The notes under the pieces are model-generated. The model had not been told where the DNA came from and did not search any database. It saw nothing but the letters and a program-made list of their open reading frames with translations. Shown piece after piece: positions 15,701-40,390 of a stretch of DNA of 64,000 bases. The position numbers and the translations under genes were made by a program. Location of the stretch: NCBI GenBank assembly GCA_959605945.1, contig CAUHGY010000001.1, positions 3,413 through 67,412 of the forward strand, read 5' to 3'. The number at the start of each line of letters is the position of its first letter. The first letter of the stretch is position 1. This stretch comes from an uncultured Clostridia bacterium. Its GTDB lineage: Bacteria; Bacillota; Clostridia; Christensenellales; Borkfalkiaceae.

Positions 15701-15815
15701 AATAAACGAAATAACTAAAAACGGTTTAAAATAATCTGAATAAAAAATCGCGGCAGTGAATGCATTAAAGCGCATGCAGACACTAAAACAATCAAACCGT
15801 TACGGAGTTTATAAT

Positions 15816-26452: not shown

Positions 26453-26481
26453 TTGACATTGAAAAATTAAAATGATAAAAT
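26453..26481 (+). promoter_or_regulatory. Sigma-70-type promoter of T-box operon 1
   Basis: TTGACA (26453-26458), 17-nt spacer ending in TGA, TAAAAT (26476-26481). Confidence 0.65.
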
Positions 26482-26494
26482 ATGACAAAATAAA

Positions 26495-26747
26495 AACGAT
26501 GACGAAGAGTACCCGTTCTAAAAATTTTTCAGAGAGACGGCGGCGGGTGAAAGCCGTTAAAATGTTTGTTCGGGTTTGTAGCTTCCGAGTTGGGAGAAAG
26601 AAAGCTTTCTGCGAGTAGAATTTCCCCGTGCTGACGCGTTAAGTCATAAGGATTGATAGATCCTGAGAGGCAGATTTATCTGCAATTTGAGTGGTACCGC
26701 GGATATTTATTATCCGTCTCAAAGTTATTTTTGAGACGGATTTTTTT
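26495..26747 (+). promoter_or_regulatory. T-box riboswitch leader 1 (transcription attenuation type), putative specifier GUA (Val)
   Basis: K-turn (AAC-GAU-GA...GA-GUU), S-turn AGUA, AG bulge AGAGA, distal loop GGCGGGUGAAA, stem III GCAGAU/AUCUGC, T-box sequence AAUUUGAGUGGUACCGCGG (26684-26702). Terminator CCGTCTCAAA/TTTGAGACGG plus T7 (26714-26747) is mutually exclusive with the antiterminator GAG-UGGUACC-GCGGAUA...UAUCCGU-CUC. Confidence 0.88.
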
Positions 26748-26766
26748 ATCCGTCGAGGAGGTATAA

Positions 26767-28500
26767 ATGCAAAATATTGCCCGCAACAAAGCAGAAAATC
26801 TCAGTTTTTCAAAAATTCTTACTGACAAAAAGAATATGCTCTGCGATAATTTTTATGACAATCAACATAATTGGGTTTACGATAAATTTATAGACGCCGA
26901 AGTCGATCAAAACGGAACTCCCGTATCGGTGACTTTTAAAAATGAAGATAAGTTTAATTTTGCATTTGACATAGTCGATGAACTTGCAGACCGTTATCCG
27001 GATAAACCGGCGCTTCTGCACGTTACCGAAGACGGCGTTGAAACCAGATTTTCATTCCGGGATATGAAGGAACTTTCAGCCCGAGCTGCGAATTATTTCA
27101 AAGCGATCGGGATAAAAAAAGGCGACAGAGTAATGTTGGTTCTCGGAAGGCGTTATCAGTTCTGGTACGCGATGTTGGGCCTTCATAAAATCGGGGCGAT
27201 AGCGCTTCCTGCAATGTGCCAGCTTTTAGAGCATGATTTCGAGTACAGATTTAATTCGGCGGGAGTGTGTGCCGTTATATGTACCGACGGCGGTGACGTC
27301 GCCCTTCACGCTGAACGCGCTGCCGAAAATTGTCCGTGCGTAAAATATAAGTTTATAGTAGGGGCCGAACGAGACGGCTGGCGCAGCTTTGACAGCGAAA
27401 TTTTTAAATATTCGCCTGTTTATGAAAGATCGGAAAATTCGCCTTGCGGGAAAGACATAATGCTGATGTTTTTCACTTCCGGTACAACCGGCTATCCTAA
27501 AATAGCTGCACACAATTACAAATATGCACTCGGGCATTTCCACACTGCCAAATACTGGCATTGCGTGCAGCGTGACGGTCTTCACTTCACTATTTCCGAC
27601 ACCGGTTGGGCAAAAGCCATGTGGGGGAAATTCTACGGTCAATGGATATGCGAATCTGCAATTTTTGTATATGATTTCGATAGATTCAATGCGGCAGATA
27701 TCCTTTCGTTGTTTGCAAAATATAAGATAACCACTTTTTGTGCGCCGCCGACGATGTTGAGAATGATGGTTAAAGAAAATCTCGGAAAATACGATTTATC
27801 ATCCGTAAAACATATGTCGACAGCGGGAGAAGCTCTGAACCCCGAAGTTTACCGCAAGTTTGAAAGTGCAACCGGACTGAAGATTATGGAAGGATTCGGT
27901 CAGACCGAAACGACGATGGTTATAGGCAATATGGCAGGGGCGCCGCACAAGATAGGATCTATGGGCAAACCGGCGCCGATTTATAAAGTAGAACTTTTGA
28001 ATTCCGACGGCAAAAAGGTTGCAGACGGAGAAGCCGGCGAAATAGTTATCAACGTCAAAAACGGTGCTCCGTGCGGATTGTTTTGCGGATATTATAACGA
28101 TAAGGAAAAAACAGACGAAGTATGGCATAACGGTTATTACCATACAGGCGACATGGCATGGAAAGACGAAAGCGGATTTTACTGGTATGTCGGCAGAGCG
28201 GATGACGTCATAAAATCGTCGGGCTACAGAATAGGTCCTTTTGAAATTGAGAGCGTGATAATGGAATTGCCCTACGTTCTTGAATGCGGAGTATCGCCTT
28301 ACCCCGATGAAGTGCGCGGACAGATAGTAAAGGCCAGTGTCGTTTTGACTGCAGGTACAGAGCCTACCGACCAATTGAAAAAAGAAATTCAAAACTATGT
28401 CAAGACGCACACGGCGCCTTATAAATATCCGAGAATAGTGGAGTTTAAAAAAGAACTGCCTAAAACGGTAAGTGGGAAAATACAGAGAAGCAAACTTTAA
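26767..28500 (+). CDS. AMP-forming acyl-CoA synthetase, medium-chain (ACSM-like) subfamily
   Basis: Adenylate-forming motifs FFTSGTTGYPK, EGFGQTET, YHTGD, GRADDVIKSSGYRIGPFEIE, PKTVSGKIQR. GGAGG RBS. Confidence 0.85.
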   Translation: MQNIARNKAENLSFSKILTDKKNMLCDNFYDNQHNWVYDKFIDAEVDQNGTPVSVTFKNEDKFNFAFDIVDELADRYPDKPALLHVTEDGVETRFSFRDMKELSARAANYFKAIGIKKGDRVMLVLGRRYQFWYAMLGLHKIGAIALPAMCQLLEHDFEYRFNSAGVCAVICTDGGDVALHAERAAENCPCVKYKFIVGAERDGWRSFDSEIFKYSPVYERSENSPCGKDIMLMFFTSGTTGYPKIAAHNYKYALGHFHTAKYWHCVQRDGLHFTISDTGWAKAMWGKFYGQWICESAIFVYDFDRFNAADILSLFAKYKITTFCAPPTMLRMMVKENLGKYDLSSVKHMSTAGEALNPEVYRKFESATGLKIMEGFGQTETTMVIGNMAGAPHKIGSMGKPAPIYKVELLNSDGKKVADGEAGEIVINVKNGAPCGLFCGYYNDKEKTDEVWHNGYYHTGDMAWKDESGFYWYVGRADDVIKSSGYRIGPFEIESVIMELPYVLECGVSPYPDEVRGQIVKASVVLTAGTEPTDQLKKEIQNYVKTHTAPYKYPRIVEFKKELPKTVSGKIQRSKL

Positions 28501-28515
28501 TCAGGAGTGGTTTTT

Positions 28516-29316
28516 ATGGAAATAATAGACGCTCACGCACATATTTATCCGCAGAAAATAGCCGCGAAAGCGACTGAGGCTATAGGTGATTTTTACGATA
28601 TAACCATGGAGATGCCTGCAGGCACACCAGAAAAACTTATAGAAATAGGTGCTTCCGCGGGAATAAGCGGTTATCTGGTTCATTCAGTGGCGACCAAAGC
28701 AGGGCAAGTTAAATCCATAAACGATTTTATCATCGAAGAGACCCGTCTTCACAGAGAATTTATCGGATTCATGACTTTGCATCAGGACATGTCGGAAGAA
28801 GAAATATTTTCCGAAATAGAACGTTGCAAAGCTGCGGGGCTGAGAGGCATAAAATTGCATCCGGATTTTCAGAAATTTTATATTGACGGTAAAGATGCGG
28901 AAAAATTTTACCGCGCGCTTTCAATGATTAACGGCGTTTTTCCCGTTCTTTTTCATACCGGAGACAACAGATATGAATTTTCGCGCCCGGAAAGGTTGGC
29001 CAAAGTAGCTGCAAAATATAAAAAACTATATTTTATTGGTGCTCATTTCGGCGGTTACCGATGCTGGGACGATGCGTGGGTATATAAGGGGCTTGATAAC
29101 GTTTATTTTGATACAAGCTCATCTCTTCCGTTTATTTCATCGGAAAGAGCGCGTGAAATTATAGACATGCTTGGTTATGAAAAGTTTTTTTTCGGCGACG
29201 ATTTTCCCATGTGGGATGCAAAAAAAGAACTTGAAAGATTTTTTAAACTAAAACTGTCGGAGAAACAGAATTCTGCCATATTATCCGGAAATTTAAAAAA
29301 TTTACTGGAATTATAA
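28516..29316 (+). CDS. Metal-dependent TIM-barrel amidohydrolase (PF04909-like)
   Basis: N-terminal IIDAHAHIYP (HxH), GIKLHPD, FHTG, GAHFGG, YFDTS, FGDDFPMW. The ATG at 28516 has a GGAG 8 nt upstream. Confidence 0.7.
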   Translation: MEIIDAHAHIYPQKIAAKATEAIGDFYDITMEMPAGTPEKLIEIGASAGISGYLVHSVATKAGQVKSINDFIIEETRLHREFIGFMTLHQDMSEEEIFSEIERCKAAGLRGIKLHPDFQKFYIDGKDAEKFYRALSMINGVFPVLFHTGDNRYEFSRPERLAKVAAKYKKLYFIGAHFGGYRCWDDAWVYKGLDNVYFDTSSSLPFISSERAREIIDMLGYEKFFFGDDFPMWDAKKELERFFKLKLSEKQNSAILSGNLKNLLEL

Positions 29317-29334: not shown

Positions 29335-29363
29335 TTGACAAATCAAAGTAAAAGCATTAGAAT
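29335..29363 (+). promoter_or_regulatory. Sigma-70-type promoter of T-box operon 2
   Basis: TTGACA (29335-29340), 17-nt spacer, TAGAAT (29358-29363). Confidence 0.65.
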
Positions 29364-29384
29364 ATATAAAAATTATCATATAAA

Positions 29385-29638
29385 TGCAGTGATGGAAAAT
29401 ACTCGTCAAATTGCGTTTCAGAGAGCCGGCGGCAGGTGAAAGCCGGTATCGCGTTGATGCGTTCTCGTTCCGGAGCAGGAGTTGCGAAAACCGAGATTAC
29501 GTTTTATCAGGTAATATTTGTCGATAGTTACTCCCGGCGGCGCCGTTATACGTTTAAATGAGAGATTGCATATCGCAATAATATGGGTGGTACCGCGGTC
29601 ATTCCGTCCCTGACTTATAAAAAGTCAGGGATTTTTTT
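29385..29638 (+). promoter_or_regulatory. T-box riboswitch leader 2 (transcription attenuation type), putative specifier CUC (Leu)
   Basis: K-turn (UGC-AGU-GA...GA-GCA), AG bulge AGAGA, distal loop GGCAGGUGAAA, stem III AUUGC/GCAAU, T-box AUAUGGGUGGUACCGCGG (29581-29598). Terminator CCCTGACTT/AAGTCAGGG plus T7 (29608-29638) competes with the antiterminator GGG-UGGUACC-GCGG...CCGU-CCC. Confidence 0.88.
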
Positions 29639-29670
29639 AAATATAAAATACTGTTATTTGAGGTTCTGAT

Positions 29671-31080
29671 ATGAAGGAAATAATTGTTAGCGACGTAACG
29701 CTTAAAGAATTAAACCGATCGGACGTTTTGTCGCTCGGGTTTAAAGAGAAGCTGGAGATAGCAAAAAAAATAAGCGAACTTTCCGTAGACGTTATCGAAC
29801 TGTTTCCCGCAGCAGGAAATAAAGCGGATGAAATATTGGTCAAGACCATTTCCGCTTGCATAAATAACAGAATAATTGCCTGTACGGCAGGTTATACCGA
29901 AAACGATCTTAAAAACAATTACGCGCTTATAAGCGGAGCGAAAAATAAACGCATCATAATAAGCATTCCGGTTTCGCCCGTGCAGATAGAATATGTTTTA
30001 AACAAAAAGCCTCAAGCAGTATTGGATTTGCTTGCAGAGCTCACCGAAAAAGCTGCGGAGCTTTGTTCGGATGTGGAAGTCTCGCTCGAAGACGCTACGC
30101 GCGCCGAAACGTCTTTTTTGCAACAGGCACTAAAAACGGCAATCTGCCGCGGAGCTAAAACCGTTACTCTGACAGATGCTGCGGGGCAGATGCTTCCGTC
30201 TGAATTCAAGGAATTCTTAGAGGATATGTATAATGCGGTGCCCGAACTGAAAGACGTGAAACTTGCGGTAATGATTTCCGATGCATATTCTATGGCAAAC
30301 GCCGGCCTTTTTAATGCGGTTGCCGCAGGCGCTGCCGAAGTAAAGGTCTCGGCCGTTGCAAGCCTCGGCGTTGCCAAAACCGAAAATTTCATAAGATCTA
30401 TGGAAACTATCGGCGTTAAAAAAGGCTATGCATGCAACCTGAACAAGACCGGTGCAATGCGAATAATAAAGCAAATAGCTCAAATCGCTGCGGAAAAAAG
30501 CGCTTATACGGCATTCGGCAGCGTAGTTGGCGAAAAAAATGAAGATATAGATAAAAACGTTTCCGAAGTAGAACTCAGCGAAATAATACAGCGGTTAGGT
30601 TATGATCTTGCGCCTGAAGATATTAAAAAGGTTTATTCTGAATTTTCTCTTCTTGCCGAGAAAAAGCAAGTCGGCATAAAGGAACTTGATGCCATAATCG
30701 CGAATACCGCGTTGCAAGTTCCCGCAACTTATTCCATCGAAAATTTTTCTGTCAGCATAAACAATACAGGCGCGGCCATGGCAGGAGTGACTCTTTTGTC
30801 GGACGGTAAACTCACGAGCGGCCTGTCTTACGGCAACGGCTCCATCGACGCGGCTTTTCTGGCTATAGAAAACATAACGGGAAGGCATTTCGATCTTGAC
30901 GATTTTGAAGTTACGGCAGTTACCGAAGGGAAGGAAGCCATGGGGCAGACGGTGATTAAACTCCGCAGCGGCGGAAAACTTTATTCCGGCCGCGGTATAT
31001 CAACCGATATAGTCGGTGCAAGCATAAAAGCTTATGTAAACGCACTCAACAAAATAGTATATGAGGAACAGCACAGATGA
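29671..31080 (+). CDS. 2-isopropylmalate synthase (LeuA) homolog with a degenerate catalytic barrel and a conserved LeuA-dimer/regulatory domain
   Basis: Aligns by eye with LeuA along its full length (EDATR retained). RDGEQ is replaced by KELNR (res 12-16), HxH by M-I-S (res 201-203), and HESGIH is absent. The C-terminal GNGSIDAAFLAIENITG...VTEGKEAMGQ...GRGISTDIVGASIKAYVNALNK is highly LeuA-like. Confidence 0.75.
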   Translation: MKEIIVSDVTLKELNRSDVLSLGFKEKLEIAKKISELSVDVIELFPAAGNKADEILVKTISACINNRIIACTAGYTENDLKNNYALISGAKNKRIIISIPVSPVQIEYVLNKKPQAVLDLLAELTEKAAELCSDVEVSLEDATRAETSFLQQALKTAICRGAKTVTLTDAAGQMLPSEFKEFLEDMYNAVPELKDVKLAVMISDAYSMANAGLFNAVAAGAAEVKVSAVASLGVAKTENFIRSMETIGVKKGYACNLNKTGAMRIIKQIAQIAAEKSAYTAFGSVVGEKNEDIDKNVSEVELSEIIQRLGYDLAPEDIKKVYSEFSLLAEKKQVGIKELDAIIANTALQVPATYSIENFSVSINNTGAAMAGVTLLSDGKLTSGLSYGNGSIDAAFLAIENITGRHFDLDDFEVTAVTEGKEAMGQTVIKLRSGGKLYSGRGISTDIVGASIKAYVNALNKIVYEEQHR

Positions 31081-33590
31081 AACTTTCTTTTTCGACTAAC
31101 GGATGGAATCTGGGATTTTCCCAGCTCGTCAGATTATGCGGCGAAAATAAGATTTCGGGGCTTGAAATACACGATGTGGATTCGCCTTGTTTTCAAAAAG
31201 AGAATCCTTTCGGAAAAAATAATCTGCCAAAAACAAAAAGAATTCTTTTTGAAAGCGGAATAAGCATTTCTTGCCTTGATTCGGTCGGTAACTTCGCTAA
31301 TTTTTCTGCCGAAGAAGAGAATATTGCGGAAATCGTAAAACTTATAGAACTATCAAAAGAACTCGGCTGTAAATACGTCAGACTTCACGCTTACAATATA
31401 GAGGGTTCAGAGATTTCTGCAGAAGATTGTAATTCCCGTTTGATGATAATTTTGCCGCGGCTTATAGAGTCTGCAAAGAAAAACGATGTGACGCTGCTTT
31501 TTGAATCAATGGGCATTTATGCGGATACCGCAAAACTTGCAGGATTATTGAATTCTTTTGCCAGCGATAACTTTGCGGCGCTGTGGGATATTCACCATAC
31601 TAATTTTTATGCAAAAGAAAGTCCGGAATCGTCGGTTAAAAATCTTGGAAAGCACATAAAACATCTGCACATTAAAGACAGCTCTCTGATTGGCGGAAAA
31701 CTTTCCTTTTGCCTGTTGGGTGAAGGCGATTTGCCCATAAAACAGGTATTTAACAGCCTGCGCTCTATAAATTACGAAGGGTTCGTATCGCTTGAACTTA
31801 TGCAGGAATGGTTGGAAACCATCGGCGAACCGGACATCGTTTTACCGCAGTTTGCAAGCTATATGGGAACATTCGAGAGCGTGCCTTCCTGGCAGAATAA
31901 GCTCTATGACAATAAGAGAAAGACGGGTAAATTTATATGGGAGAAAGAAACGCTTATCGAACGCACTTTTTCTCAGGTTCTTGATAAAGTAACGGAAGAA
32001 TTTCCCGACCAGATAGCTTTTAAATACACTACGCTCGATTATACCCGAACATATTCGGAATTCCGCGACGAAGTAGATATTGTTGCGAGAGCGCTGATGG
32101 CTATAGGCGTTCGTAAAGGCGACCACGTTGCGGTGTGGGCAACAAATGTTCCTGAATGGTATCTTACGTTTTGGGCGACAACCAAAATCGGCGCCGTGCT
32201 TGTTACCGTGAACACCGCTTATAAAGTACATGAGGCGGAATATCTGTTGAAACAGTCGGATACTCACACGCTGGTTATGATTAAGGGCTGGAGAGATTCC
32301 GATTACGCCGGTATAATAAACGAACTCTGTCCCGAACTGAAAGATTTGAAAAAAGGCGAATCCCTGCACGCAAAGAGACTTCCGTTTCTTCGCAATGTCG
32401 TGACGGTGGGATTCAGGCAGAAAGGGTGTCTTGAATTTTCCGAAATGATGGAGTTAGCGAAAAACGTTCCGCAGGAAAAAATGCAGATGGTTGCAAATAC
32501 CGTAGGGGTGAACGACGTCTGTAATATGCAGTATACTTCCGGTACCACGGGATTTCCTAAAGGCGTCATGCTGACGCATTATAATATTGTTAATAACGGG
32601 AAATGCATAGGCGACAGAATGGATCTTTCGACAGCCGACAGAATGATGATACAGGTTCCTATGTTCCACTGTTTCGGAATGGTACTTGCCATGACGGCGT
32701 CAATCACGCACGGAGTTTCCATATATCCGTTGCCGTATTTTTCGCCGAAGCCTGCGCTTGCATGCATAAATCAGGAGCAGATAACGTGTTTCCACGGCGT
32801 TCCGACTATGTTTATAGCTATGCTCGCCCATGACGATTTCCCGAAAACAGACTTTTCCCATATGCGTACGGGCATAATGGCGGGAAGTCCCTGTCCGGTA
32901 GCCGTAATGCAGGATGTAATAGATAAAATGCATATGACGGAGATAACTATAGTCTACGGGCAGACCGAAGCATCGCCCGGGTGCACGATGTCGAGCACGG
33001 AAGACAGTATAGAAGTCCGTGTTGAAACGGTCGGCAGACCCCTTCCGAGCATAGAATGTAAAATCGTTGATCCGGAAACCAACAGAGAAGTGCCTGATAA
33101 CACGGTCGGAGAGTTTGTTGCACGCGGTTATAACCTTATGAAAGGCTATTATAAAATGCCTAACGAGACGGCAAAAGCAATAGACTCGGAAGGGTGGCTG
33201 CACACAGGCGACCTTGCTCTCAGAATGCCGGACGGCAATTTCCGAATAACCGGCAGACTTAAGGATATGATAATCCGTGGCGGGGAGAATCTTTATCCGA
33301 AAGAAATAGAAGATTTTCTCTATACTCACCCAAAGGTGTCGGACGTGCAGGTTGTCGGCGTGCCTGACGAAAAATACGGTGAAGAGGCGTATGCCTATGT
33401 AATTCTGAAAGAGGGCGAAACCCTTACGGAAAATGAATTGCGCGAATATTGCGTAGCAAGCATTGCAAAACATAAAGTACCGAGATATTTTGATTTTGTA
33501 AGCAGTTTTCCGATGAACGTCGCAGGGAAAATATTGAAATATAAAATGCGGGAAGACGCTGCGGAAAAAATAAAGAATTTAAAAAAATAA
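31077..33590 (+). CDS. Fusion: xylose-isomerase-like TIM barrel (sugar phosphate isomerase/epimerase family) plus AMP-dependent acyl-CoA ligase (FadD-like)
   Basis: Residues 1 to ~270 show the PF01261-type pattern (LFES, WDIHH, HLHIKD, GEGDLP, GFVSLEL). Residues ~290-837 have YTSGTTGFPKGVMLTH, YGQTE, GWLHTGDLA, GRLKDMIIRGGENLYPKEIE, GKILK. Single ORF with an ATGA overlap with the upstream gene. Confidence 0.8.
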   Translation: MKLSFSTNGWNLGFSQLVRLCGENKISGLEIHDVDSPCFQKENPFGKNNLPKTKRILFESGISISCLDSVGNFANFSAEEENIAEIVKLIELSKELGCKYVRLHAYNIEGSEISAEDCNSRLMIILPRLIESAKKNDVTLLFESMGIYADTAKLAGLLNSFASDNFAALWDIHHTNFYAKESPESSVKNLGKHIKHLHIKDSSLIGGKLSFCLLGEGDLPIKQVFNSLRSINYEGFVSLELMQEWLETIGEPDIVLPQFASYMGTFESVPSWQNKLYDNKRKTGKFIWEKETLIERTFSQVLDKVTEEFPDQIAFKYTTLDYTRTYSEFRDEVDIVARALMAIGVRKGDHVAVWATNVPEWYLTFWATTKIGAVLVTVNTAYKVHEAEYLLKQSDTHTLVMIKGWRDSDYAGIINELCPELKDLKKGESLHAKRLPFLRNVVTVGFRQKGCLEFSEMMELAKNVPQEKMQMVANTVGVNDVCNMQYTSGTTGFPKGVMLTHYNIVNNGKCIGDRMDLSTADRMMIQVPMFHCFGMVLAMTASITHGVSIYPLPYFSPKPALACINQEQITCFHGVPTMFIAMLAHDDFPKTDFSHMRTGIMAGSPCPVAVMQDVIDKMHMTEITIVYGQTEASPGCTMSSTEDSIEVRVETVGRPLPSIECKIVDPETNREVPDNTVGEFVARGYNLMKGYYKMPNETAKAIDSEGWLHTGDLALRMPDGNFRITGRLKDMIIRGGENLYPKEIEDFLYTHPKVSDVQVVGVPDEKYGEEAYAYVILKEGETLTENELREYCVASIAKHKVPRYFDFVSSFPMNVAGKILKYKMREDAAEKIKNLKK

Positions 33591-33603
33591 AAGGAGAACG
33601 GTC

Positions 33604-34668
33604 ATGGAGATAAAAATACAGAAAGCCGAAAAACTGAAAGAAAAACCCGATTTTTCGAATCTGGGTTTCGGTAAATATTTTACCGATCATATGTTTGTTA
33701 TGGATTATTCGGACAAGGAAGGCTGGCACGACGCGAGAATAATTCCTTTCGGGTATATTCCGATTCATCCTGCAAGTACCGTACTGCACTACGGTGCGGA
33801 AATATTTGAGGGTATGAAGGCATATAAGACCGAAGACGGTTATCAGATGTTCAGACCTTATGAAAATGCAAAGCGTTTCAACAATTCCGCAGAGAGAATG
33901 TGTTTGCCGCAGATTGACGAGGAATTATTCGTTAAATCGATAACCGAGCTTATAAACATCGATTACAGCTGGATTCCCGACTCCGAAGGCGCATCGCTTT
34001 ATATTCGCCCCTTCATGTTCGGAAATGACGAAAGCCTTGGAGTTCACGCTGTTCACAATGCGACTTATGTTGTCATTCTTTCGCCGGTCGGAAGCTATTA
34101 TAAAGAAGGTCTGAATCCCGTGAAAATCACTATAGAAGATGAAGACGTGAGAGCAGTCCGCGGCGGTACAGGCTATGCAAAGTGCGGCGGCAATTATGCG
34201 GCCAGCATGCGTGCGGGGCAGCGCGCCGAGAAAAAAGGTTTTACTCAGGTGCTTTGGCTTGACGGCGTGGAAAGAAAATATATCGAAGAAGTCGGCGCCA
34301 TGAACGTTATGTTCAAAATAGACGGGGAAATCGTTACTCCCAAACTTACGGGATCGGTTCTTCCCGGCATAACGAGAAAATCTTGCATTGAAATGCTCAG
34401 AAGCTGGGGTTATAATGTTAATGAAAGATTGTTGTCTGTCGACGAACTTATAGGCGCTGCCGAAAACGGAAAGCTTGAAGAAGCCTGGGGAACAGGCACG
34501 GCTGCAGTGGTTTCTCCCATAGGATTGCTGTCGTATAAAGGCAAAGATCACGTGGTGTCGCAAAATAAAATAGGCGCGCTTACGCAGAAACTTTATGATG
34601 AGCTTACGGGAATGCAGTGGGGTAAAAAACCCGATGCTTTCGGCTGGTGTTATAAGGTAAAAATTTGA
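33604..34668 (+). CDS. ilvE: Branched-chain amino acid aminotransferase (fold-type IV, long form)
   Basis: 354 aa. Typical IlvE blocks FGKYFTDHMF, LHYGAEIFEGMKAY, YIRPFMFG, GGTGYAKCGGNYA, EVGAMNVMF, VLPGITR, GTAAVVSPI. Confidence 0.9.
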   Translation: MEIKIQKAEKLKEKPDFSNLGFGKYFTDHMFVMDYSDKEGWHDARIIPFGYIPIHPASTVLHYGAEIFEGMKAYKTEDGYQMFRPYENAKRFNNSAERMCLPQIDEELFVKSITELINIDYSWIPDSEGASLYIRPFMFGNDESLGVHAVHNATYVVILSPVGSYYKEGLNPVKITIEDEDVRAVRGGTGYAKCGGNYAASMRAGQRAEKKGFTQVLWLDGVERKYIEEVGAMNVMFKIDGEIVTPKLTGSVLPGITRKSCIEMLRSWGYNVNERLLSVDELIGAAENGKLEEAWGTGTAAVVSPIGLLSYKGKDHVVSQNKIGALTQKLYDELTGMQWGKKPDAFGWCYKVKI

Positions 34669-35336
34669 TGAACGCAAAACGGATAACGCTGTTTGCCGGG
34701 CACTACGGCAGCGGCAAAACCAATGTGGCGGTAAACTTTGCGTGCAGCCTTGCGAAAGACGGTAAGAGAACGGTAATTTACGATCTCGATATAGTAAATC
34801 CGTATTTCAGGACGATAGACGCGAAAAAATTTCTCGACGAATGCGGCGTTGAACTTGTTGTATCGCCGTACGCCGAAACTAATGTGGATATACCGGCAAT
34901 GAATGCCGCGTCTTACCGTATGGTGGACGATCTTGAAAGTTATGCCGTCGTGGATATCGGGGGCGACGACCGCGGTGCGTATGCACTCGGCAGATTTTCC
35001 GAAAAGATAAAAGCCGAAAATAATTATGATATGCTGCTTGTAATCAACAGATTTCGCCCTGAAACACGTACTGTTGAAAACCTTGCGGAAATTAAAGACG
35101 AAATAGAAAGAGCAGCGAAAATAAAATTTACGGGTATTGTGGATAATTCCAATCTCGGAGCCGAAACAACGCTGGAAACGATTGAAGAAAACAGGGCTTT
35201 TGCCCTTGAATCGTCGGAAAAATTCATGTTACCTGTTGTGTTTACTTCGATAAACAGCGAGCTGTTAAAAAATCGAAAAAATATCAGAGAAGACATATTG
35301 CCCGTCAGTTTGATAAAGTACGGCGATTGGCAATAG
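34668..35336 (+). CDS. P-loop NTPase of unknown function (SIMIBI-like)
   Basis: Walker A GHYGSGKT near the N-terminus and a Walker-B-like VVDIGGDD. TGATG overlap with the ilvE stop. Sits immediately upstream of the OFOR genes. Confidence 0.55.
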   Translation: MNAKRITLFAGHYGSGKTNVAVNFACSLAKDGKRTVIYDLDIVNPYFRTIDAKKFLDECGVELVVSPYAETNVDIPAMNAASYRMVDDLESYAVVDIGGDDRGAYALGRFSEKIKAENNYDMLLVINRFRPETRTVENLAEIKDEIERAAKIKFTGIVDNSNLGAETTLETIEENRAFALESSEKFMLPVVFTSINSELLKNRKNIREDILPVSLIKYGDWQ

Positions 35337-35346
35337 AGGAGAAAAA

Positions 35347-35553
35347 ATGGCGAAAGTTACTTTTAACGTTGAACGCTGCAAGGGATGCGGACTGTGTGAA
35401 ATGGTTTGTCCGAAACATATTATTTCTCTTGCACAGGAAAAGATTAACACGAAGGGCTATCATCCTGCTGAAGTTACAGATGCAAATAAGTGCATAGGGT
35501 GCGCATTTTGCGCCACTATGTGTCCGGACAGCGTAATTACGGTGGAAAAATAG
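35347..35553 (+). CDS. 2-oxoacid:ferredoxin oxidoreductase delta subunit (2x[4Fe-4S] ferredoxin)
   Basis: CKGCGLCEMVCP and CIGCAFCATMCP. 68 aa. Positioned before the alpha subunit. Confidence 0.85.
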   Translation: MAKVTFNVERCKGCGLCEMVCPKHIISLAQEKINTKGYHPAEVTDANKCIGCAFCATMCPDSVITVEK

Positions 35554-35562
35554 AGGTGAAAT

Positions 35563-36633
35563 ATGTCAGATAAAGTTTTAATGAAAGGAAACGAGGCGCT
35601 GGCAGAAGCTGCCATTATGGCGGGATGCAGATATTATTTCGGCTATCCTATAACTCCGCAGACCGAAGTCGCCGCATATATGTCAAGACGCATGCCTAAA
35701 ATCGGCGGAACGTTCTTGCAGGCGGAATCGGAAATTGCCGCTATCAACATGGTTATAGGCGTATCGTCATGCGGAAAACGCGTCATGACGTCGAGTTCAA
35801 GTCCAGGAATATCTTTAAAAAGCGAAGGCATTTCTTATCTTGCCGGCTGTGAACTTCCCGCACTGATCGTAAATGTGCAGAGAGGAGGTCCGGGGCTCGG
35901 TGGAATTCAACCTTCTCAGTCAGACTATTTCCAGGCAACAAAAGGCGGCGGGCACGGAGACTATAAACTTATAGTTCTTGCACCGGCCTCCATCCAGGAA
36001 ATGGTCGACCTTACATTCAAAGGTTTTGACCTTGCGGATAAATACAGAATGCAGACCATGATTCTTGCGGACGGAACTATGGGGCAGATGATGGAGCCGG
36101 TAAGCTTAAATCTCGGCGAAGTGAAAGAATACGATAAAAGTTGGGCTACGACGGGAACGGCTAACCACGACGGCAGAAACGTAGTGAATTCACTCTCGCT
36201 TTCGCCTGCGCAGCTTGAAGAATGGAATATTTCGAGATACGAAAGATATAAAATAGTCGAACGCGACGAGGTTATGTTTGAAGAATTCATGATGGATGAT
36301 GCCGATTATTGCATAGTTGCATTCGGAATAGCCGCAAGAATTTCCAAAAACGCTATTCTCGAAGCGAGAAAACAAGGTCTTAAAGCGGGAATGATCCGTC
36401 CTATTACTTTATGGCCGTTCCCCAAAAACGTTCTCAAAAAAGCGGCAGAAAAAGTCAAGGCGTTTTTATCGGTCGAACTCAATATGGGGCAGATGATCGA
36501 TGATGTGAAACTTGCCGTTGAATGTTCAAAACCCGTTTATCTTTGCAACCGCACCGGCGGAATGCTTGTTTCCCCGCAGGAAGTGCTTGATAAACTTAAA
36601 GAAATTGACAAAGGAGAAGCAAAACAATGGTAG
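35563..36633 (+). CDS. vorB: 2-oxoacid:ferredoxin oxidoreductase alpha subunit, VorB-like
   Basis: LMKGNEALAEAAIMAGCRYYFGYPITPQTE, QAESEIAAINM, SSSSPGISL, RGGPGLGGIQPSQSDYFQATKGGGHGDY. Substrate assignment rests on context only. Confidence 0.8.
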   Translation: MSDKVLMKGNEALAEAAIMAGCRYYFGYPITPQTEVAAYMSRRMPKIGGTFLQAESEIAAINMVIGVSSCGKRVMTSSSSPGISLKSEGISYLAGCELPALIVNVQRGGPGLGGIQPSQSDYFQATKGGGHGDYKLIVLAPASIQEMVDLTFKGFDLADKYRMQTMILADGTMGQMMEPVSLNLGEVKEYDKSWATTGTANHDGRNVVNSLSLSPAQLEEWNISRYERYKIVERDEVMFEEFMMDDADYCIVAFGIAARISKNAILEARKQGLKAGMIRPITLWPFPKNVLKKAAEKVKAFLSVELNMGQMIDDVKLAVECSKPVYLCNRTGGMLVSPQEVLDKLKEIDKGEAKQW

Positions 36634-37373
36634 TTTTCGGAAAAACAAAGGGACTTACCGATAATCCGTTGCATTATTGTCCGGGTTGTACGCATGGTAT
36701 AATTCACAGACTTGTGGCGGAAGTTCTCGAAGAACTCGGCGTGCTCGGAAAAACGGTCGGAGTTGCGTCGGTAGGATGTTCGGTCTTTTCCTATAATTAT
36801 TTTAATTGCGATATGATACAGGCGGCTCACGGAAGAGCGCCGGCCGTTGCGACAGGGGCCAAAAGAGCAAATCCCGACAACATAGTTTTTACCTATCAGG
36901 GTGACGGCGATCTCGCTGCGATAGGTACGGCTGAAACCGTTCATTCGGCTGCCCGCAACGAAAATATAACGGTGATTTTTGTCAACAACGCCATTTACGG
37001 CATGACCGGCGGACAGATGGCGCCTACCACGCTTCCGAATCAGGTCACTCAGACTTCGCCTTACGGCAGAGATGTCACAGTGGTAGGTTACCCTGTAAAG
37101 GTATGTGAGATGCTTTCTCAGGTCGACGGTGCATCTTATCTCGAACGCGTGGCAGTAAACAATATCGCTAATATCAGGAAAGCTAAAAAAGCTATTTATC
37201 ACGCTTTTAAAAATCAGATGGAAGGTAAAGGATTTTCTCTTATAGAAGTTCTTTCAACATGTCCCACCAACTGGGGGCTTTCTCCTAAGGAAGCAATAAA
37301 ATGGCTTGACGACAATCTTGAAACTTATTATCCTCTCGGAGTATATAAGGACAAATACAAGGAGGAAAAGTAA
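36627..37373 (+). CDS. vorA: 2-oxoacid:ferredoxin oxidoreductase beta subunit (TPP-binding)
   Basis: YCPGCTHG, GDGD...NNAIYGMTGGQ (TPP/Mg motif). Overlaps the alpha-subunit gene. Confidence 0.85.
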   Translation: MVVFGKTKGLTDNPLHYCPGCTHGIIHRLVAEVLEELGVLGKTVGVASVGCSVFSYNYFNCDMIQAAHGRAPAVATGAKRANPDNIVFTYQGDGDLAAIGTAETVHSAARNENITVIFVNNAIYGMTGGQMAPTTLPNQVTQTSPYGRDVTVVGYPVKVCEMLSQVDGASYLERVAVNNIANIRKAKKAIYHAFKNQMEGKGFSLIEVLSTCPTNWGLSPKEAIKWLDDNLETYYPLGVYKDKYKEEK

Positions 37374-37913
37374 ATGGCAAAAACCACCAAGATTCTGATT
37401 GCCGGTTTCGGCGGACAGGGGATTCTGTTTGCGGGAAAAGCCTTGGCGTATACCGGGCTTAAAGCCGACATGGAAGTCAGCTGGCTTCCTTCTTACGGCC
37501 CCGAAATGCGCGGGGGAACGGCAAATTGCAGCGTGACGCTTTCAGATACTGCTATCGGATCTCCTATAGTCGATAAACCCGATATTCTGATAGCTATGAA
37601 TCTGCCTTCGCTTGAAAAATATTTTTACGAAACGGAAAAAGGCGGATACATTATATTCGACAGTTCACTGATTATCAAGCAGGATACCAGAGACGATGTT
37701 ATCACCGTTGGTATTCCTGCGACAAAGATGGCAAGTGATAACGGGCTTGATGGACTGGCGAATATGATAATGTTGGGTAAGGTAATCAAAGAAACCGGCA
37801 TCCTTACATTAGAACAGGTAAAAAACAGTCTATCGCAAATGGTTCCGGCTAAAAAGGCGGACCTTTTACAAAAAAATATCAAGGCGATAGAATTGGGTTA
37901 TAATTTTCAATAG
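37374..37913 (+). CDS. 2-oxoacid:ferredoxin oxidoreductase gamma subunit
   Basis: [29 protein letters not shown]. The start abuts the beta-subunit stop. Confidence 0.85.
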
Positions 37914-37922
37914 GGGGTTATT

Positions 37923-38474
37923 ATGAAAGAGCAGTTGAAGGCAATGGGCCAAAGGCTTACGGAGTTAAGGGAAATAAACGGCGTTTCTGTCAAAGAAATT
38001 GCCGAAAGACTCAAAATGACCGAAGAAGAATATACCGCATATGAAAACGGCGACAGAGATTTTTCTTTCAGTTTCATGTTTAATGTTGCCACGATTTTCG
38101 GTGTTGACGTATTCAATCTGCTTTCAGGTAACTCTCCTAAATTGAGCGATTGCGCTGTAGTAAGGAAAGGGCAGGAATTTTTTATTAAAAAGGAAGGCTC
38201 ATATAACTACAAACATCTCGCTTATACGTTTAAGAATAAAAAAGCGGAACCGTTTTTCGTCGTGAGTATGCCGGGCGAGGAAGATACTGACCTTCACAGC
38301 CATGAAGGACAGGAATTTAATTTCGTTCTTTCCGGCAGCATGCTTTTCAAGATCGGAGATATGTCGTACGAATTGAATAAAGGCGACAGCGTTTATTTCA
38401 ATTCGTCGCTCAAACACGGCATAAAAGTGCTCGGCGACAAACCCGTTAAATTTCTTGCAGTCGTAATGAAATAA
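37923..38474 (+). CDS. XRE-family HTH plus cupin-domain transcriptional regulator
   Basis: N-terminal HTH (LTELREINGVSVKEIAERLKMTEEEYTAYENG). C-terminal cupin (HSHEGQEFNFVLSG...GDSVYFNSSLKHG). Confidence 0.8.
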   Translation: MKEQLKAMGQRLTELREINGVSVKEIAERLKMTEEEYTAYENGDRDFSFSFMFNVATIFGVDVFNLLSGNSPKLSDCAVVRKGQEFFIKKEGSYNYKHLAYTFKNKKAEPFFVVSMPGEEDTDLHSHEGQEFNFVLSGSMLFKIGDMSYELNKGDSVYFNSSLKHGIKVLGDKPVKFLAVVMK

Positions 38475-38502
38475 TTCAATTGACGCCGTTACGGAGTTAA
38501 AT

Positions 38503-40197
38503 ATGGTTATTTACGAAAAATATACGGGAAGAAACAGGGATTCATTTAAAGATTTAAAAGATTTAAGAGAAAACTTCAAAATAACGTACGGCGAAGATTT
38601 TAACTTTGCCTATGACGTGATGGATGTGTTGGCAAAAGAAAAACCGGACAAACTTGCCATGCTTTGGCTTTCCGATAAGAAAGAAGAAAAGCGTTTTACT
38701 TTTGCCGATATGAAATATTGGTCGGATAAAACCGCATGCTATCTCAAGAGCATGGGCATAAAGAAAGGGGACAAGGTCCTGCTTGTACTGAAGCGCAGCT
38801 ATTTATTTTGGTTTTGTATGCTTGCCATGCATAAAATAGGTGCGATACCCATTCAAGCGACCAATATGCTTGTGGGAAAAGACTTTACTTACCGATGTAA
38901 TAAAGCCGGTATACGTGCGGTCATCATTACCGGTGACGGCGATGTCAGCGAACATTTTGACACGGTTGAAGCTCAATGCACAACCGTAGAGATGAAATTT
39001 GTCACAAAACATAAGGATGCCGGAAAAGGCTGGATTGATTTTGAAAGCGGGCTTATGGCTGCATCGTCTGATTGGAAAAAACCTGTCGGAAAAGATGCTG
39101 TCAAAGCAAAAGACATTATGTTTATGGCGTTTTCGTCAGGCACAACGGGTTATCCCAAAATGATAATGCACGATTTTACTTATCCGTTAGGGCATATCGT
39201 GACGGGATTGTTCTGGCATCGCGTGGAAGACGGAGGACTTCACTTCACTATATCCGACACGGGGTGGCTGAAATCGCTTTGGGGTAAATTTTATGGACAA
39301 TGGTTCGGCGAATCGGCAATACTCGTGTACGATTTCAATAAATTTGACGGGGCCGATATATTGGATGTGCTGTCAAAATATAAAGTCACCACTTTCTGTG
39401 TTCCGCCTACCATGTATAGATTTATGCTGCAAAACGACGTCAAATCTTACGACCTGTCATCGCTTAAACATTGTTGTTCTGCGGGAGAGGCCCTCAATGC
39501 GGATATTTTTAACAAGTGGAAAGATGCTACCGGGTTGGAAATATACGAGGGATTCGGTCAGACCGAAACGACGCTTTGTCTCGGCACTCTTTACGGTTTT
39601 TCAAAGCCGATTTCGGGTTTTATAGGCAAACCCGTTGCGGGATACGATTTAATGGTGGCGGGAAAAGACGGTAAAGAATGTCTTCCCGGCGAAGCCGGAG
39701 AAATCTGCATAAAAGCAAGTCCGGAAAACAAACCGTGCGGTTTGATGTGCGGTTATTATAACGACGAAGAGTCAACTGCGTACAGTTGGCGCGGCGGGTG
39801 TTTCCATACGGGCGACACCGCATATGTAGACGAATACGGCAACTATAAATATATCGGTCGTAACGATGACGTCATAAAGTCGTCAGGATACCGCATCGGA
39901 CCTTTCGAAGTGGAAAGCGTTCTCATGGAACATCCCGCGGTTCTCGAAGTGGCCGTTACCGGAGTGCCTGACGAAAAAAGAGGTTTCAGCGTAAAGGCAA
40001 CGATAGTTCTTAAAAAAGGTTATGTTCCGAGCAGCGAGCTTGTTGTTGAGCTTCAAAATTACGTCAAAACAAACACGGCGCCTTATAAATATCCGCGAGT
40101 GGTGGAATTTGTAGAATCACTTCCAAAAACTATCAGCGGCAAAATAAGACGTACTGAAATACGTGAGAATGACATGTTGAAATACGGAAAAAAATAA
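38503..40197 (+). CDS. AMP-forming acyl-CoA synthetase, ACSM-like (paralog of 26767-28500)
   Basis: FSSGTTGYPK, EGFGQTET, FHTGD, GRNDDVIKSSGYRIGPFEVE, PKTISGKIRR. Roughly half the residues are identical to the first ligase by eye. Confidence 0.85.
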   Translation: MVIYEKYTGRNRDSFKDLKDLRENFKITYGEDFNFAYDVMDVLAKEKPDKLAMLWLSDKKEEKRFTFADMKYWSDKTACYLKSMGIKKGDKVLLVLKRSYLFWFCMLAMHKIGAIPIQATNMLVGKDFTYRCNKAGIRAVIITGDGDVSEHFDTVEAQCTTVEMKFVTKHKDAGKGWIDFESGLMAASSDWKKPVGKDAVKAKDIMFMAFSSGTTGYPKMIMHDFTYPLGHIVTGLFWHRVEDGGLHFTISDTGWLKSLWGKFYGQWFGESAILVYDFNKFDGADILDVLSKYKVTTFCVPPTMYRFMLQNDVKSYDLSSLKHCCSAGEALNADIFNKWKDATGLEIYEGFGQTETTLCLGTLYGFSKPISGFIGKPVAGYDLMVAGKDGKECLPGEAGEICIKASPENKPCGLMCGYYNDEESTAYSWRGGCFHTGDTAYVDEYGNYKYIGRNDDVIKSSGYRIGPFEVESVLMEHPAVLEVAVTGVPDEKRGFSVKATIVLKKGYVPSSELVVELQNYVKTNTAPYKYPRVVEFVESLPKTISGKIRRTEIRENDMLKYGKK

Positions 40198-40203
40198 ATA
40201 TCG

Positions 40204-40230
40204 GCCGCCATATATGGCGGCTGTATTTTT
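40204..40230 (+). terminator. Rho-independent terminator ending T-box operon 2
   Basis: Palindrome GCCGCCATATATGGCGGC followed by TGTATTTTT. Confidence 0.75.
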
Positions 40231-40269: not shown

Positions 40270-40298
40270 TTGACATATATTTTATAATATGCTACTAT
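40270..40298 (+). promoter_or_regulatory. Sigma-70-type promoter of the his operon
   Basis: TTGACA (40270-40275), 17-nt spacer, TACTAT (40293-40298). Confidence 0.6.
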
Positions 40299-40390
40299 AT
40301 TAGCGTGTTAAAGTGATAAAGCAAATGACGATGCAAGGAAAGACATAAGAGAGTTCAAGCATTTAATAAGAATAGCAGGTAATAACAGTC

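Follow-up and report, generated by a model that had tools for sequence, protein, structure and literature searches.

Multiple T-boxes are known from the repeated leaders of thrZ and of the trp operons of some Firmicutes. To our knowledge, these tandem T-boxes are adjacent copies of the same specificity that lie within one leader. The archaeal 2-ketoisovalerate:ferredoxin oxidoreductase is known as VOR. In labelling work of the 1960s to 80s, Allison and co-workers reportedly defined a route by which rumen and gut anaerobes reductively carboxylate branched-chain fatty acids to make branched-chain amino acids, and the formation of leucine from isovalerate in this way is established biochemistry for rumen bacteria. 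Among leucine T-boxes, a CUC specifier was shown to give Bacillus subtilis ilv-leu its leucine control (Marta et al., 1996, as listed in PMC2494555). Wels et al. (2008; PMC2494555) place T-boxes upstream of leuA in Geobacter and Pelobacter as well, and describe these as bona fide leuA genes. Of the AMP-forming acyl-CoA synthetases, MacsMa (3ETC) prefers 2-methylbutyrate as substrate (PMC10455477), and MbcS-type enzymes activate isobutyrate and 2-methylbutyrate (PMC10026030).

We analyzed a 64-kb stretch of DNA (the window, in whose numbering all positions are given) that carries two T-box-headed units, operon 1 and operon 2 (Table 1). The leader of operon 2, called leader 2, matches RF00230 (T-box) on the + strand at 29380-29614 and spans model positions 1-219 of 219, with 99.0 bits against a gathering score of 93 (E=1.3e-20), a margin of just 6 bits. 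The preliminary description of this DNA had called the element a T-box; this call holds, and all structural coordinates claimed for it were present when the letters were checked directly. Its T-box identity is supported by the full-model match over the threshold, by competing antiterminator and terminator arms, and by covariation of the helices framing the specifier loop. We consider leader 2 very probably a genuine leucine-sensing class-I transcriptional T-box riboswitch with specificity for tRNA-Leu. A translational T-box reading was considered and rejected. The RNA element itself is of an ordinary, well-known kind and brings nothing new for T-box biology. A search with ARAGORN returned zero tRNA genes in the window, so that the cognate tRNA-Leu(GAG) with A73 is absent from it. 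For comparison we used 80 related loci (GTDB) with enough upstream DNA. A T-box precedes the orthologous first gene in 57 of them, and its absence before the same gene in the other 23 indicates that T-box control is not obligatory for the cluster. The source organisms of the relatives are uncultured gut and rumen Clostridia.

Table 1. Features of the two T-box-headed units in window coordinates
Feature	Position	Strand	Basis
Operon 1 (upstream unit)	26453..29316	+	scans, Rfam, Pfam
Operon 1 promoter	26453-81	+	
Operon 1 T-box, 116 bits, specifier GUA (Val) + G	26490-26724	+	Rfam
Operon 1 terminator	26712-41	+	
Operon 1 Macs/MbcS-like ligase	26767-28500	+	
Operon 1 Amidohydro_2 protein	28507-29316	+	Pfam
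Sigma-70-type promoter: -35 TTGACA 29335-40, 17-nt spacer, -10 TAGAAT 29358-63	29335..29363	+	scan
Stem I	29385..29477	+	Rfam alignment, covariation
Stem I C-stem UGC/GCA	29385-87 / 29475-77	+	sequence
K-turn bulge AGU	29388-90	+	sequence
Tandem G.A pairs, G29391/A29392 vs G29473/A29474	29391-92 / 29473-74	+	sequence
Stem I helix UGGAA/UUCCG	29393-97 / 29468-72	+	sequence
Stem I upper helix CGUCAA/UUGAUG	29404-09 / 29454-59	+	sequence
AG bulge AGAGA	29420-24	+	Rfam alignment
Distal hairpin, loop GGCAGGUGAAA	29425-30 / 29442-47	+	Rfam alignment
3' specifier-loop strand CGUUCUCG	29460-67	+	sequence
Specifier codon CUC (Leu), then G29467	29464..29466	+	Rfam model specifier positions
Stem II, insertion of roughly 28 nt	29478-29534	+	Rfam alignment
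Stem IIA/B element CGGCGGCGCCGUUA	29535-48	+	Rfam alignment
Stem III AUUGC/GCAAU	29565..29579	+	Rfam alignment
Antiterminator with T-box sequence: GGG 29585-87 / CCC 29608-10, GCGG 29595-98 / CCGU 29604-07	29585..29610	+	Rfam alignment
7-nt bulge UGGUACC	29588-94	+	Rfam alignment
T-box bulge UGGU, predicted to pair with tRNA 3' ACCA	29588-91	+	sequence
Intrinsic terminator: 11-bp stem 29606-16/29622-32, loop AUAAA, U7 29633-39	29606..29639	+	scan
Gene 1 RBS GAGG	29660-63	+	
Gene 1, LeuA-like, 469 aa, HMGL-like + LeuA allosteric/dimerisation domains	29671..31080	+	Pfam
Gene 2, xylose-isomerase-like TIM barrel (~27-242) :: acyl-CoA ligase (~290-833) fusion	31077..33590	+	Pfam
Gene 3, branched-chain amino acid aminotransferase IlvE (class II)	33604..34668	+	NCBIfam
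Gene 4, CbiA/MinD-like P-loop NTPase, 223 aa	34665..35336	+	Pfam CbiA
Genes 5-8, four-subunit VOR-type 2-oxoacid:ferredoxin oxidoreductase	35347..37913	+	NCBIfam/Pfam
VOR delta ferredoxin, 2x[4Fe-4S]	35347-35553	+	
VOR alpha	35563-36633	+	NCBIfam VorB PRK07119, 541.8 bits, cut-off 399
VOR beta	36627-37373	+	NCBIfam family-level match only
VOR gamma	37374-37913	+	NCBIfam family-level match only
Gene 9, HTH (XRE-type) + cupin regulator, 183 aa	37923..38474	+	Pfam HTH_19 + Cupin_2
Gene 10, Macs/MbcS-like short branched-chain acyl-CoA synthetase, 564 aa	38503..40197	+	NCBIfam, PDB
Operon terminator (strong)	40202-40223	+	terminator scan

The base of Stem I has a K-turn (GA motif) made up of the C-stem, a bulge of 3 nt, and the tandem G.A pairs. 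Among relatives the C-stem occurs in covarying UA/GC and GC/AU forms, with both sides changed in 19 of 41 sequences, and the AG bulge AGAGA showed no variation in 41 sequences. The distal loop fits the consensus GgUUGGUGaaA and its hairpin stem covaries, so that the elements of the tRNA-elbow platform are present. In the helices flanking the specifier loop, 94.6% of cells are paired and 11 of 14 pairs have changed on both sides. None of 500 shuffles did as well, and slid partners paired in about 35% of cells compared with 94.6%. A covariance-model alignment of 115 sequences gave the same result. From the MAFFT alignment, RNAalifold recovered the distal hairpin alone; since this shortfall is due to misalignment of the middle of Stem I, the named pairs were counted and the covariance-model realignment was made. 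Likewise, the minimum-free-energy fold of the whole leader did not reproduce Stem I (z = -1.4), as one would expect from the non-canonical K-turn and T-loop motifs, and the fold was not used as evidence either way. The S-turn motifs (AGUA / GAA) are unrecognisable in the specifier loop, which reads AAUACU / CGUU and has gaps in the Rfam alignment, and here leader 2 departs from the textbook T-box. The region of Stem II and Stem IIA/B (29478..29548) is kept in the related loci L081, L082, and L023. In L023, the nearest GTDB relative, Stem III occurs as the compensated variant GUCGCC/GGCGGC; the leader of this locus scores below the Rfam gathering score.

The promoter-like site claimed at 29335-29363 was recovered by our scan and matches the consensus at 11 of 12 positions. 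By itself the scan is not significant (36 sites found, 32 expected). A match of at least 10/12 that ends 5-26 nt before Stem I is, however, kept in 56 of the 57 orthologous leaders. An own promoter at a conserved position argues that leader 2 heads an independent transcription unit first and is a read-through checkpoint only secondarily. Further downstream lies the conserved T-box sequence UGGGUGGUACCGCGG at 29584-98. The bulge UGGU, proposed to match the discriminator A, is indeed found there, and U29591 would read A73. Nucleotides 29606-10 belong both to the 3' arm of the antiterminator and to the 5' arm of the terminator, and the two structures are mutually exclusive; evaluated as named structures they reach -6.8 and -17.1 kcal/mol, respectively. 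Termination at 29638 had been expected from the letters, and a terminator hairpin (29606-29632) with U7 was found by the scan. It forms in the minimum-free-energy fold and shows compensatory changes in L023. Transcription would begin at the leader's own promoter, and Stem I would make two contacts to dock tRNA-Leu(GAG), one with the CUC specifier and one with the distal AG-bulge/loop platform. An uncharged tRNA would pair by its free 3' ACCA with UGGU and thereby stabilise the weak antiterminator, and RNA polymerase would continue into the ten-gene operon. With charged tRNA the far more stable terminator would form and transcription would end at about 29639. Read-through from the Val-controlled operon 1 would meet this terminator as well.

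The 3' strand of the specifier loop, CGUUCUCG, holds overlapping UUC, UCU, and CUC, and a reading in another register, as UUC (Phe, 29462-64), UCU (Ser) or UCG, would imply that a different tRNA is sensed. The S-turn, the usual aid in fixing the register, is degenerate in leader 2, and UGGU (discriminator A) would be compatible with tRNA-Phe too. However, the helix directly 3' of the codon is pinned by compensatory changes (GGAA/UUCC, GGAG/CUCC, GAAA/UUUC, GAUA/UAUC, GAUG/CAUC, and GGCG/CGCC), and since the framing helices change compensatorily the register of the specifier is fixed. In this register leader 2 carries CUC followed by the purine G, which is conserved across orthologous leaders. 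The Rfam covariance model agrees and places CUC+G at the specifier positions also in L032, L068, and L081, and CUC+A in L082. The specifier column before gene-1 orthologues contains a Leu codon in 57/57 leaders (CUC 37, CUG 20), so that these specifiers differ at the synonymous wobble position only, whereas the columns before the codon vary freely (G, A, U or C). As a positive control, the same procedure reads CCC for the T-box before a prolyl-tRNA-synthetase-type gene in L082. The Leu (CUC) specifier of the preliminary description is thus borne out by the covariance-model placement and by the orthologous leaders, and the alignment-based call is Leu in the window, in L032, L068, and L081 and in 57/57 orthologous leaders. 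A Phe or Ser register is rejected by helix compensation and by the uniform Leu codons, and we regard another register as extremely improbable. Hardly more credible is the view that leader 2 is a decaying or non-functional T-box and that the operon-encoded HTH-cupin protein regulates instead. It could draw on an Rfam score that is barely over the threshold and on the 23 of 80 loci without T-box, some of which instead carry, at the promoter, an inverted repeat that resembles an operator. Yet K-turn, specifier, AG bulge, distal loop, T-box sequence, and competing helices are all intact, and these elements are kept via compensatory changes in relatives at 53-87% protein identity. The relic reading was rejected on account of both.

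Operon 2 (29671-40197; 10,527 nt) comprises ten genes that all point the same way and are separated by at most 28 nt, in keeping with the ten-gene, 10.5-kb operon described before. Judged by its predicted products, it is neither an ilv-leu operon nor does it encode the usual leucine pathway. In the gene 1 product neither the HxH metal ligands nor the RDGEQ motif is found: aligned to 3rmj, it has MIS in place of HCH and KELNR in place of RDGEQ. Histidine at the two HxH positions was found in 0 of 20 members of its family, and its best NCBIfam LeuA score (273.7 bits) is far under the cut-off of 532. By metal site, RDGEQ, and equivalog score the predicted protein falls outside 2-isopropylmalate synthase (LeuA). 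Pfam does recognise the LeuA allosteric domain (E=5e-31); a PDB sequence search with this C-terminal domain gave no match. Because the catalytic metal site is lost and the leucine-binding allosteric domain is kept, the protein may be a leucine sensor or a regulatory partner of the TIM-barrel::ligase fusion encoded by gene 2. This fusion (AP_endonuc_2, AMP-binding, and AMP-binding_C in Pfam; 701 bits against NCBIfam PRK12583, cut-off 832) always follows the LeuA-like gene in the 80 loci. For its TIM-barrel domain and for the upstream amidohydrolase, PDB sequence searches gave weak, non-specific matches only. Gene 3 passes two NCBIfam cut-offs (NF009897, 473.9 bits, cut-off 307; TIGR01123, 381.6 bits, cut-off 250), and gene 4 always precedes the VOR genes in relatives. 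Gene 10 reaches 414.8 bits against NCBIfam MbcS, under the cut-off of 850, and its best solved relative is 3ETC (MacsMa; 642 bits). In the window, VOR and IlvE stand behind the Leu switch only, which is an awkward fit with the Val-controlled upstream ligase.

The enzyme set of an Allison-type route, namely acid-activating ligases, a VOR-type oxidoreductase, and a branched-chain aminotransferase, is found in one regulated unit, and we lean, by a small measure, toward the reading that the products of operon 2 turn isovalerate and related branched acids, taken up from outside, into leucine. The ligases would activate the branched acid to its CoA ester in an ATP-dependent step, VOR run in reverse would convert the acyl-CoA to the 2-oxo acid by ferredoxin-dependent reductive carboxylation, and IlvE would transaminate the 2-oxo acid. 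IlvE and VOR alpha pass curated NCBIfam cut-offs, and the ligases match at family level. In related loci, HTH-cupin and ligase pairs lie behind separate T-boxes with Ile (AUC, n=33) or Val (GUC or GUA, n=16) specifiers, and Val T-boxes additionally precede bare ligase genes (n=2). The Macs-like ligases behind those T-boxes fall into two clades, one for Ile and one for Val. Genes under a T-box are switched on by scarcity of the amino acid, which fits synthesis and not breakdown. This induction logic and clades that follow the specifier lend indirect support to a putative carboxylating direction of VOR and to the predicted ligase specificity.

A Leu-specific switch could also control genes that make no leucine. 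VOR-type enzymes are best known running oxidatively, and IlvE followed by VOR in this direction would break branched-chain amino acids down to acyl-CoA. Inducing such a breakdown on uncharged cognate tRNA would, however, be the reverse of T-box logic. Alternatively, exogenous acids would serve as source of branched acyl-CoA primers for membrane fatty acids, sparing leucine when it is scarce, like MbcS in S. aureus. MbcS supports branched-chain fatty-acid synthesis (PMC10026030 and PMC11167679), and AMP-forming ligases would be sufficient by themselves for primer supply. IlvE and VOR, which lie within T-box-controlled units here and in relatives, would be superfluous for primers made from free acids. 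One ligase module per Leu, Ile, and Val T-box, with clades tracking the specifier, fits amino-acid supply, and we consider the two variants together unlikely. Somewhat less probable still is a two-input circuit in which transcripts made under Val limitation must pass the Leu checkpoint and VOR and IlvE need both signals. Our scan revealed no terminator-like site between the amidohydrolase stop codon (29316) and leader 2, as the preliminary description had noted, and the stop codon is only 19 nt away from the -35 hexamer. The layout is identical in L081, the closest relative (87% identical). The 70% relatives L082 and L083 do not have it and carry leuS upstream on the opposite strand; its absence there argues against a selected Val-then-Leu logic, and it occurs in 0 of the 80 GTDB loci. 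Moreover, the 11/12 promoter of leader 2 is its own and is family-wide. Elsewhere, the amidohydrolase gene follows the ligase fusion or directly precedes the LeuA-like gene, and this varying position speaks for shuffled gene order rather than a circuit. Hence, of the in-series claim the missing inter-operon terminator stands, whereas a selected logic, for which the layout is shared with L081 only, is unlikely; the arrangement is probably incidental, a by-product of gene order.

Returning to leucine synthesis from branched acids, a broader scheme seems to us evenly balanced between right and wrong. In gut and rumen Oscillospirales, Leu, Ile, and Val T-boxes would each gate a dedicated acid-activating module that feeds a shared VOR and IlvE core. 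Leu T-boxes would control the LeuA-like protein and the TIM-barrel::ligase fusion, and Ile and Val T-boxes an HTH-cupin protein with a Macs-like ligase of one clade each. If true, this cluster would supply the genetic basis, missing for so long, of Allison-type Leu, Ile, and Val synthesis from isovalerate, 2-methylbutyrate, and isobutyrate, a LeuA-derived pseudoenzyme would have been reused as leucine sensor, and the Leu T-box operon of the window would be one compact version of the three-module system. The regulon, rather than the RNA element, is the interesting part. A T-box is a readable codon label of the amino acid that its genes serve, and this label ties leucine to a conserved, poorly annotated cluster and Ile and Val to similar genes in relatives. 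It yields testable assignments: the pairing of ligases with branched acids, VOR as a carboxylase, and a LeuA relative that is no synthase but carries the annotation “2-isopropylmalate synthase” or “hypothetical”. That fibre-degrading bacteria use branched-chain volatile fatty acids is relevant to ruminant nutrition and to cross-feeding in the human gut.

Compared with the ilv-leu and leuS T-boxes of B. subtilis, leader 2 is alike in RNA family, CUC codon, UGGU bulge matching A73, and transcriptional terminator/antiterminator mechanism, and differs in its unrecognisable S-turn motifs. The genes behind it are different: B. subtilis ilv-leu encodes the keto-acid elongation pathway (ilvBHC-leuABCD), whereas operon 2 has none of those enzymes and carries acyl-CoA ligases, VOR, IlvE, and a LeuA derivative that looks inactive. 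The leuA T-boxes of Geobacter and Pelobacter are likewise Leu-type and immediately precede a member of the isopropylmalate-synthase family, but the gene 1 family has no HxH histidines (0/20) and scores far under the NCBIfam LeuA cut-offs. As in the thrZ and trp tandems, more than one T-box may lie on one potential transcript in the window; here, however, two complete units, each with promoter, leader, and genes, have the specificities Val and then Leu. Both Macs/MbcS-like ligases of the window belong to the same AMP-forming acyl-CoA synthetase group as MacsMa and S. aureus MbcS, with 415-430 bits against the MbcS equivalog cut-off of 850, and their substrates are predicted. They have an amino-acid-specific T-box linkage, which is unreported for MacsMa or MbcS in the literature searched. 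In that literature the Allison-type route is connected neither with this gene cluster nor with T-box control, and T-boxes, surveys of them included, are not linked to VOR or branched-acid ligases; coverage was partial, and an earlier mention is possible. The enzymes expected for the Allison-type route, that is acid activation, a four-subunit VOR, and IlvE, are present in operon 2, and the hosts of its relatives are gut and rumen Clostridia.

An Rfam scan of the whole window at gathering thresholds produced two hits, which both belong to T-box leader family RF00230 and lie on the forward strand. Each coordinate assigned to leader 2 in the preliminary description matches the sequence, and one deviation from the standard T-box fold is that its specifier loop shows no recognisable S-turn motifs in the Rfam alignment. 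Upper Stem I, Stem III and the terminator all show compensated changes across relatives with 87%, 70% and 53% protein identity. The T-box sequence can form a canonical antiterminator with a 7-nt bulge (UGGUACC), evaluated at -6.8 kcal/mol. Downstream, the consensus scan found an 11-bp terminator hairpin followed by U7, whose arms (-17.1 kcal/mol) are present in the minimum-free-energy fold. Since 29606-10 is common to both structures, they are mutually exclusive, and since ribosome binding site and start codon lie beyond the U-tract, control is transcriptional.

Features of the two leaders and the genes that they precede (window positions)
Feature	Position	Strand	Details
Upstream unit, promoter	26453-81		
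Leader 1 T-box	26490-26724	+	RF00230, 116.1 bits
Upstream unit, ligase	26767-28500		
Upstream unit, Amidohydro_2 protein	28507-29316		
Leader 2 promoter-like site	29335-63		TTGACA-17-TAGAAT; consensus scan
Leader 2 T-box	29380-29614	+	RF00230, 99.0 bits, gathering score 93, E=1.3e-20, model 1-219 of 219
C-stem UGC/GCA	29385-87 / 29475-77	+	sequence
Bulge AGU	29388-90	+	sequence
Tandem G.A pairs	29391-92 vs 29473-74	+	sequence
Helix UGGAA/UUCCG	29393-97 / 29468-72	+	sequence
Upper helix CGUCAA/UUGAUG	29404-09 / 29454-59	+	sequence
3' specifier-loop strand CGUUCUCG	29460-67	+	CUC 29464-66, G29467
T-box sequence UGGGUGGUACCGCGG	29584-98	+	can form antiterminator
Antiterminator GGG/CCC	29585-87 / 29608-10		
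UGGU	29588-91	+	sequence
Antiterminator GCGG/CCGU	29595-98 / 29604-07		
Terminator hairpin	29606-32		arms 29606-16 / 29622-32
U-tract end	29639		
RBS	29660-63		GAGG
Start codon	29671		ATG
Ten-gene operon	29671-40197		closely packed
LeuA-like protein	29671-31080		HMGL-like + LeuA allosteric domain
Fusion	31077-33590		xylose-isomerase-like TIM barrel + acyl-CoA ligase
IlvE			score above curated cut-offs
P-loop protein			CbiA/MinD-like
2x[4Fe-4S] ferredoxin, three 2-oxoacid:ferredoxin oxidoreductase (VOR) subunits			alpha passes VorB cut-off
HTH-cupin regulator			
Last gene			Macs/MbcS-like acyl-CoA synthetase
Operon terminator	40202-23		strong

The structure-aware Rfam alignment places CUC and then G at the specifier and following-purine positions of leader 2; leader 1 has GUA+G (Val) at the same positions. 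An independent test used relatives of the first operon gene, namely 80 loci from species-representative genomes and three closer contigs. When 41 Stem I regions were aligned with MAFFT, one column triplet proved to be C-U-[C/G] in each of the 40 orthologous leaders. The helices framing the specifier loop are paired in 94.6% of cells, 11 of 14 pairs are altered on both sides, and none of 500 shuffles covaried as well; sliding the 3' partners by 1-3 columns lowered pairing to about 25-42%. Immediately 3' of the codon, the helix takes the forms GGAA/UUCC, GGAG/CUCC, GAAA/UUUC, GAUA/UAUC, GAUG/CAUC and GGCG/CGCC. A Stem I covariance model found 115 elements in 84 sources, and its alignment gives a leucine codon in 57/57 leaders before orthologues of the first gene (CUC 37, CUG 20). 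As a control, the T-box ahead of a prolyl-tRNA-synthetase-type gene in L082, a 70% relative, reads CCC. The proposed leucine specifier thus holds in the alignment. UGGU had been taken to match the discriminator of tRNA-Leu; the implied A73 fits, but it also fits several other tRNAs and therefore adds little.

The promoter scan alone was not above chance (36 sites observed, 32 expected), and we therefore base the leader 2 promoter on conservation: a sigma-70 consensus match of at least 10/12, ending 5-26 nt before Stem I, precedes 56 of 57 orthologous Leu leaders. Leader 2 therefore heads a transcription unit of its own. The unit upstream ends 19 nt before the -35 hexamer of leader 2. As originally described, no terminator-like site lies between the stop codon at 29316 and leader 2 in the consensus scan, and read-through, then subject to the leucine decision, is therefore plausible. 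The idea of two operons in series stands to this extent, and L081, the 87% relative, has the layout too. However, the layout is absent from both 70% relatives (L082, L083), which have leuS upstream on the other strand, and from 80/80 GTDB loci. We read the arrangement as probably a by-product of how the genes happen to be ordered, not as a two-input circuit under selection. The leucyl-tRNA-synthetase-type genes (L082 7087-9516(-), L083 2639-5068(-)) are divergent from the Leu T-box operon and gave no T-box match at the Rfam gathering score. L081 also has the unit behind leader 1, which codes for a Macs/MbcS-like acyl-CoA synthetase as well as an Amidohydro_2 protein; elsewhere the gene for the amidohydrolase follows the ligase fusion or directly precedes the LeuA-like gene, under a Leu T-box.

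The LeuA-like protein, labelled 2-isopropylmalate synthase in some sources, scores far under every LeuA cut-off. Relative to N. meningitidis LeuA, HCH is replaced by MIS and RDGEQ by KELNR; His is absent from both HxH metal-ligand positions in 20 of 20 family members, and RDGEQ is lost in 20/20 relatives checked. The C-terminal allosteric domain is its best-conserved part. The protein is likely a pseudoenzyme or leucine sensor. Its gene adjoins the fusion gene in all 80 loci; in the PDB the TIM-barrel domain of the fusion has only weakly similar relatives, which are sugar epimerases. Another HMGL-like protein (13763-15154), which resembles homocitrate/isopropylmalate synthases and lacks the LeuA allosteric domain, is encoded between aspartate aminotransferase (12565-13761) and thrC (15756-17297). 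The commonest T-box targets are tRNA-synthetase genes; at the Rfam gathering score, no such leader precedes trpS (17337-18344, 40 nt after thrC). A his operon (hisZ, hisG, hisD ...; 40270-43399) begins immediately beyond the terminator of the ten-gene operon, with a promoter-like site at 40270-98; neither a T-box nor a His leader was detected there.

The ten-gene operon lacks leuBCD and ilvBHCD. The closest solved relative of its last gene product is MacsMa (3ETC, 642 bits), which prefers 2-methylbutyrate (PMC10455477). The operon also contains internal promoter-like sites, ahead of the P-loop/VOR genes (34388-34416, 11/12) and of the HTH-cupin gene (37865-37893, 10/12). The number of such sites in the region is not above chance; they could allow expression of VOR, IlvE or the last ligase independently of the leucine switch.

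The cluster occurs widely among uncultured Oscillospiraceae, Acutalibacteraceae, Faecousia and Ruminococcus, in genomes from the guts of humans and ruminants. In many of these the Leu T-box governs just the LeuA-like and fusion genes, and separate T-boxes precede HTH-cupin and ligase pairs: AUC (Ile) ahead of the first of two such pairs, and GUC or GUA (Val), or AUC, ahead of a pair followed by P-loop-VOR-IlvE. Many of the loci L004-L080 carry all three T-boxes, each with its own ligase module (e.g. L008 6809-6917(-), 9428-9537(-), 9701-9808(+)), and the ligases under Ile and under Val T-boxes each have a clade of their own. The T-box is missing from 23 of the 80 loci with enough upstream DNA. 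Four of these loci (L009, L024, L037, L073) keep the ten-gene order and share, some 60-90 nt before the start of the LeuA-like gene (~9900-9950 in the locus), a strong promoter followed by an inverted repeat, CTTAT-AGTGC-ATAAG. This repeat may be an operator replacing the riboswitch, with the HTH-cupin protein as the obvious suspect for its binding partner. Two loci (L002, L078) have yet another leader type with a terminator at its end.

A T-box switches genes on when its amino acid runs short. Taken together with the specifiers, ligase clades and gene content, this logic suggests, as the simplest reading, that the related clusters convert isovalerate, 2-methylbutyrate and isobutyrate into Leu, Ile and Val. 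The branched acid would be activated with CoA, the acyl-CoA reductively carboxylated and the product transaminated to the amino acid, a route established by labelling in rumen bacteria. That T-boxes of three specificities control such salvage, with a LeuA-derived sensor, we consider an evenly balanced proposition. This regulon appears undescribed in the literature searched, which covers T-box surveys incompletely. The RNA itself is a member of a thoroughly known family and its specifier is likewise known: CUC is the triplet shown to give the B. subtilis ilv-leu operon leucine control, according to a passage of PMC2494555 citing Marta et al. (1996).
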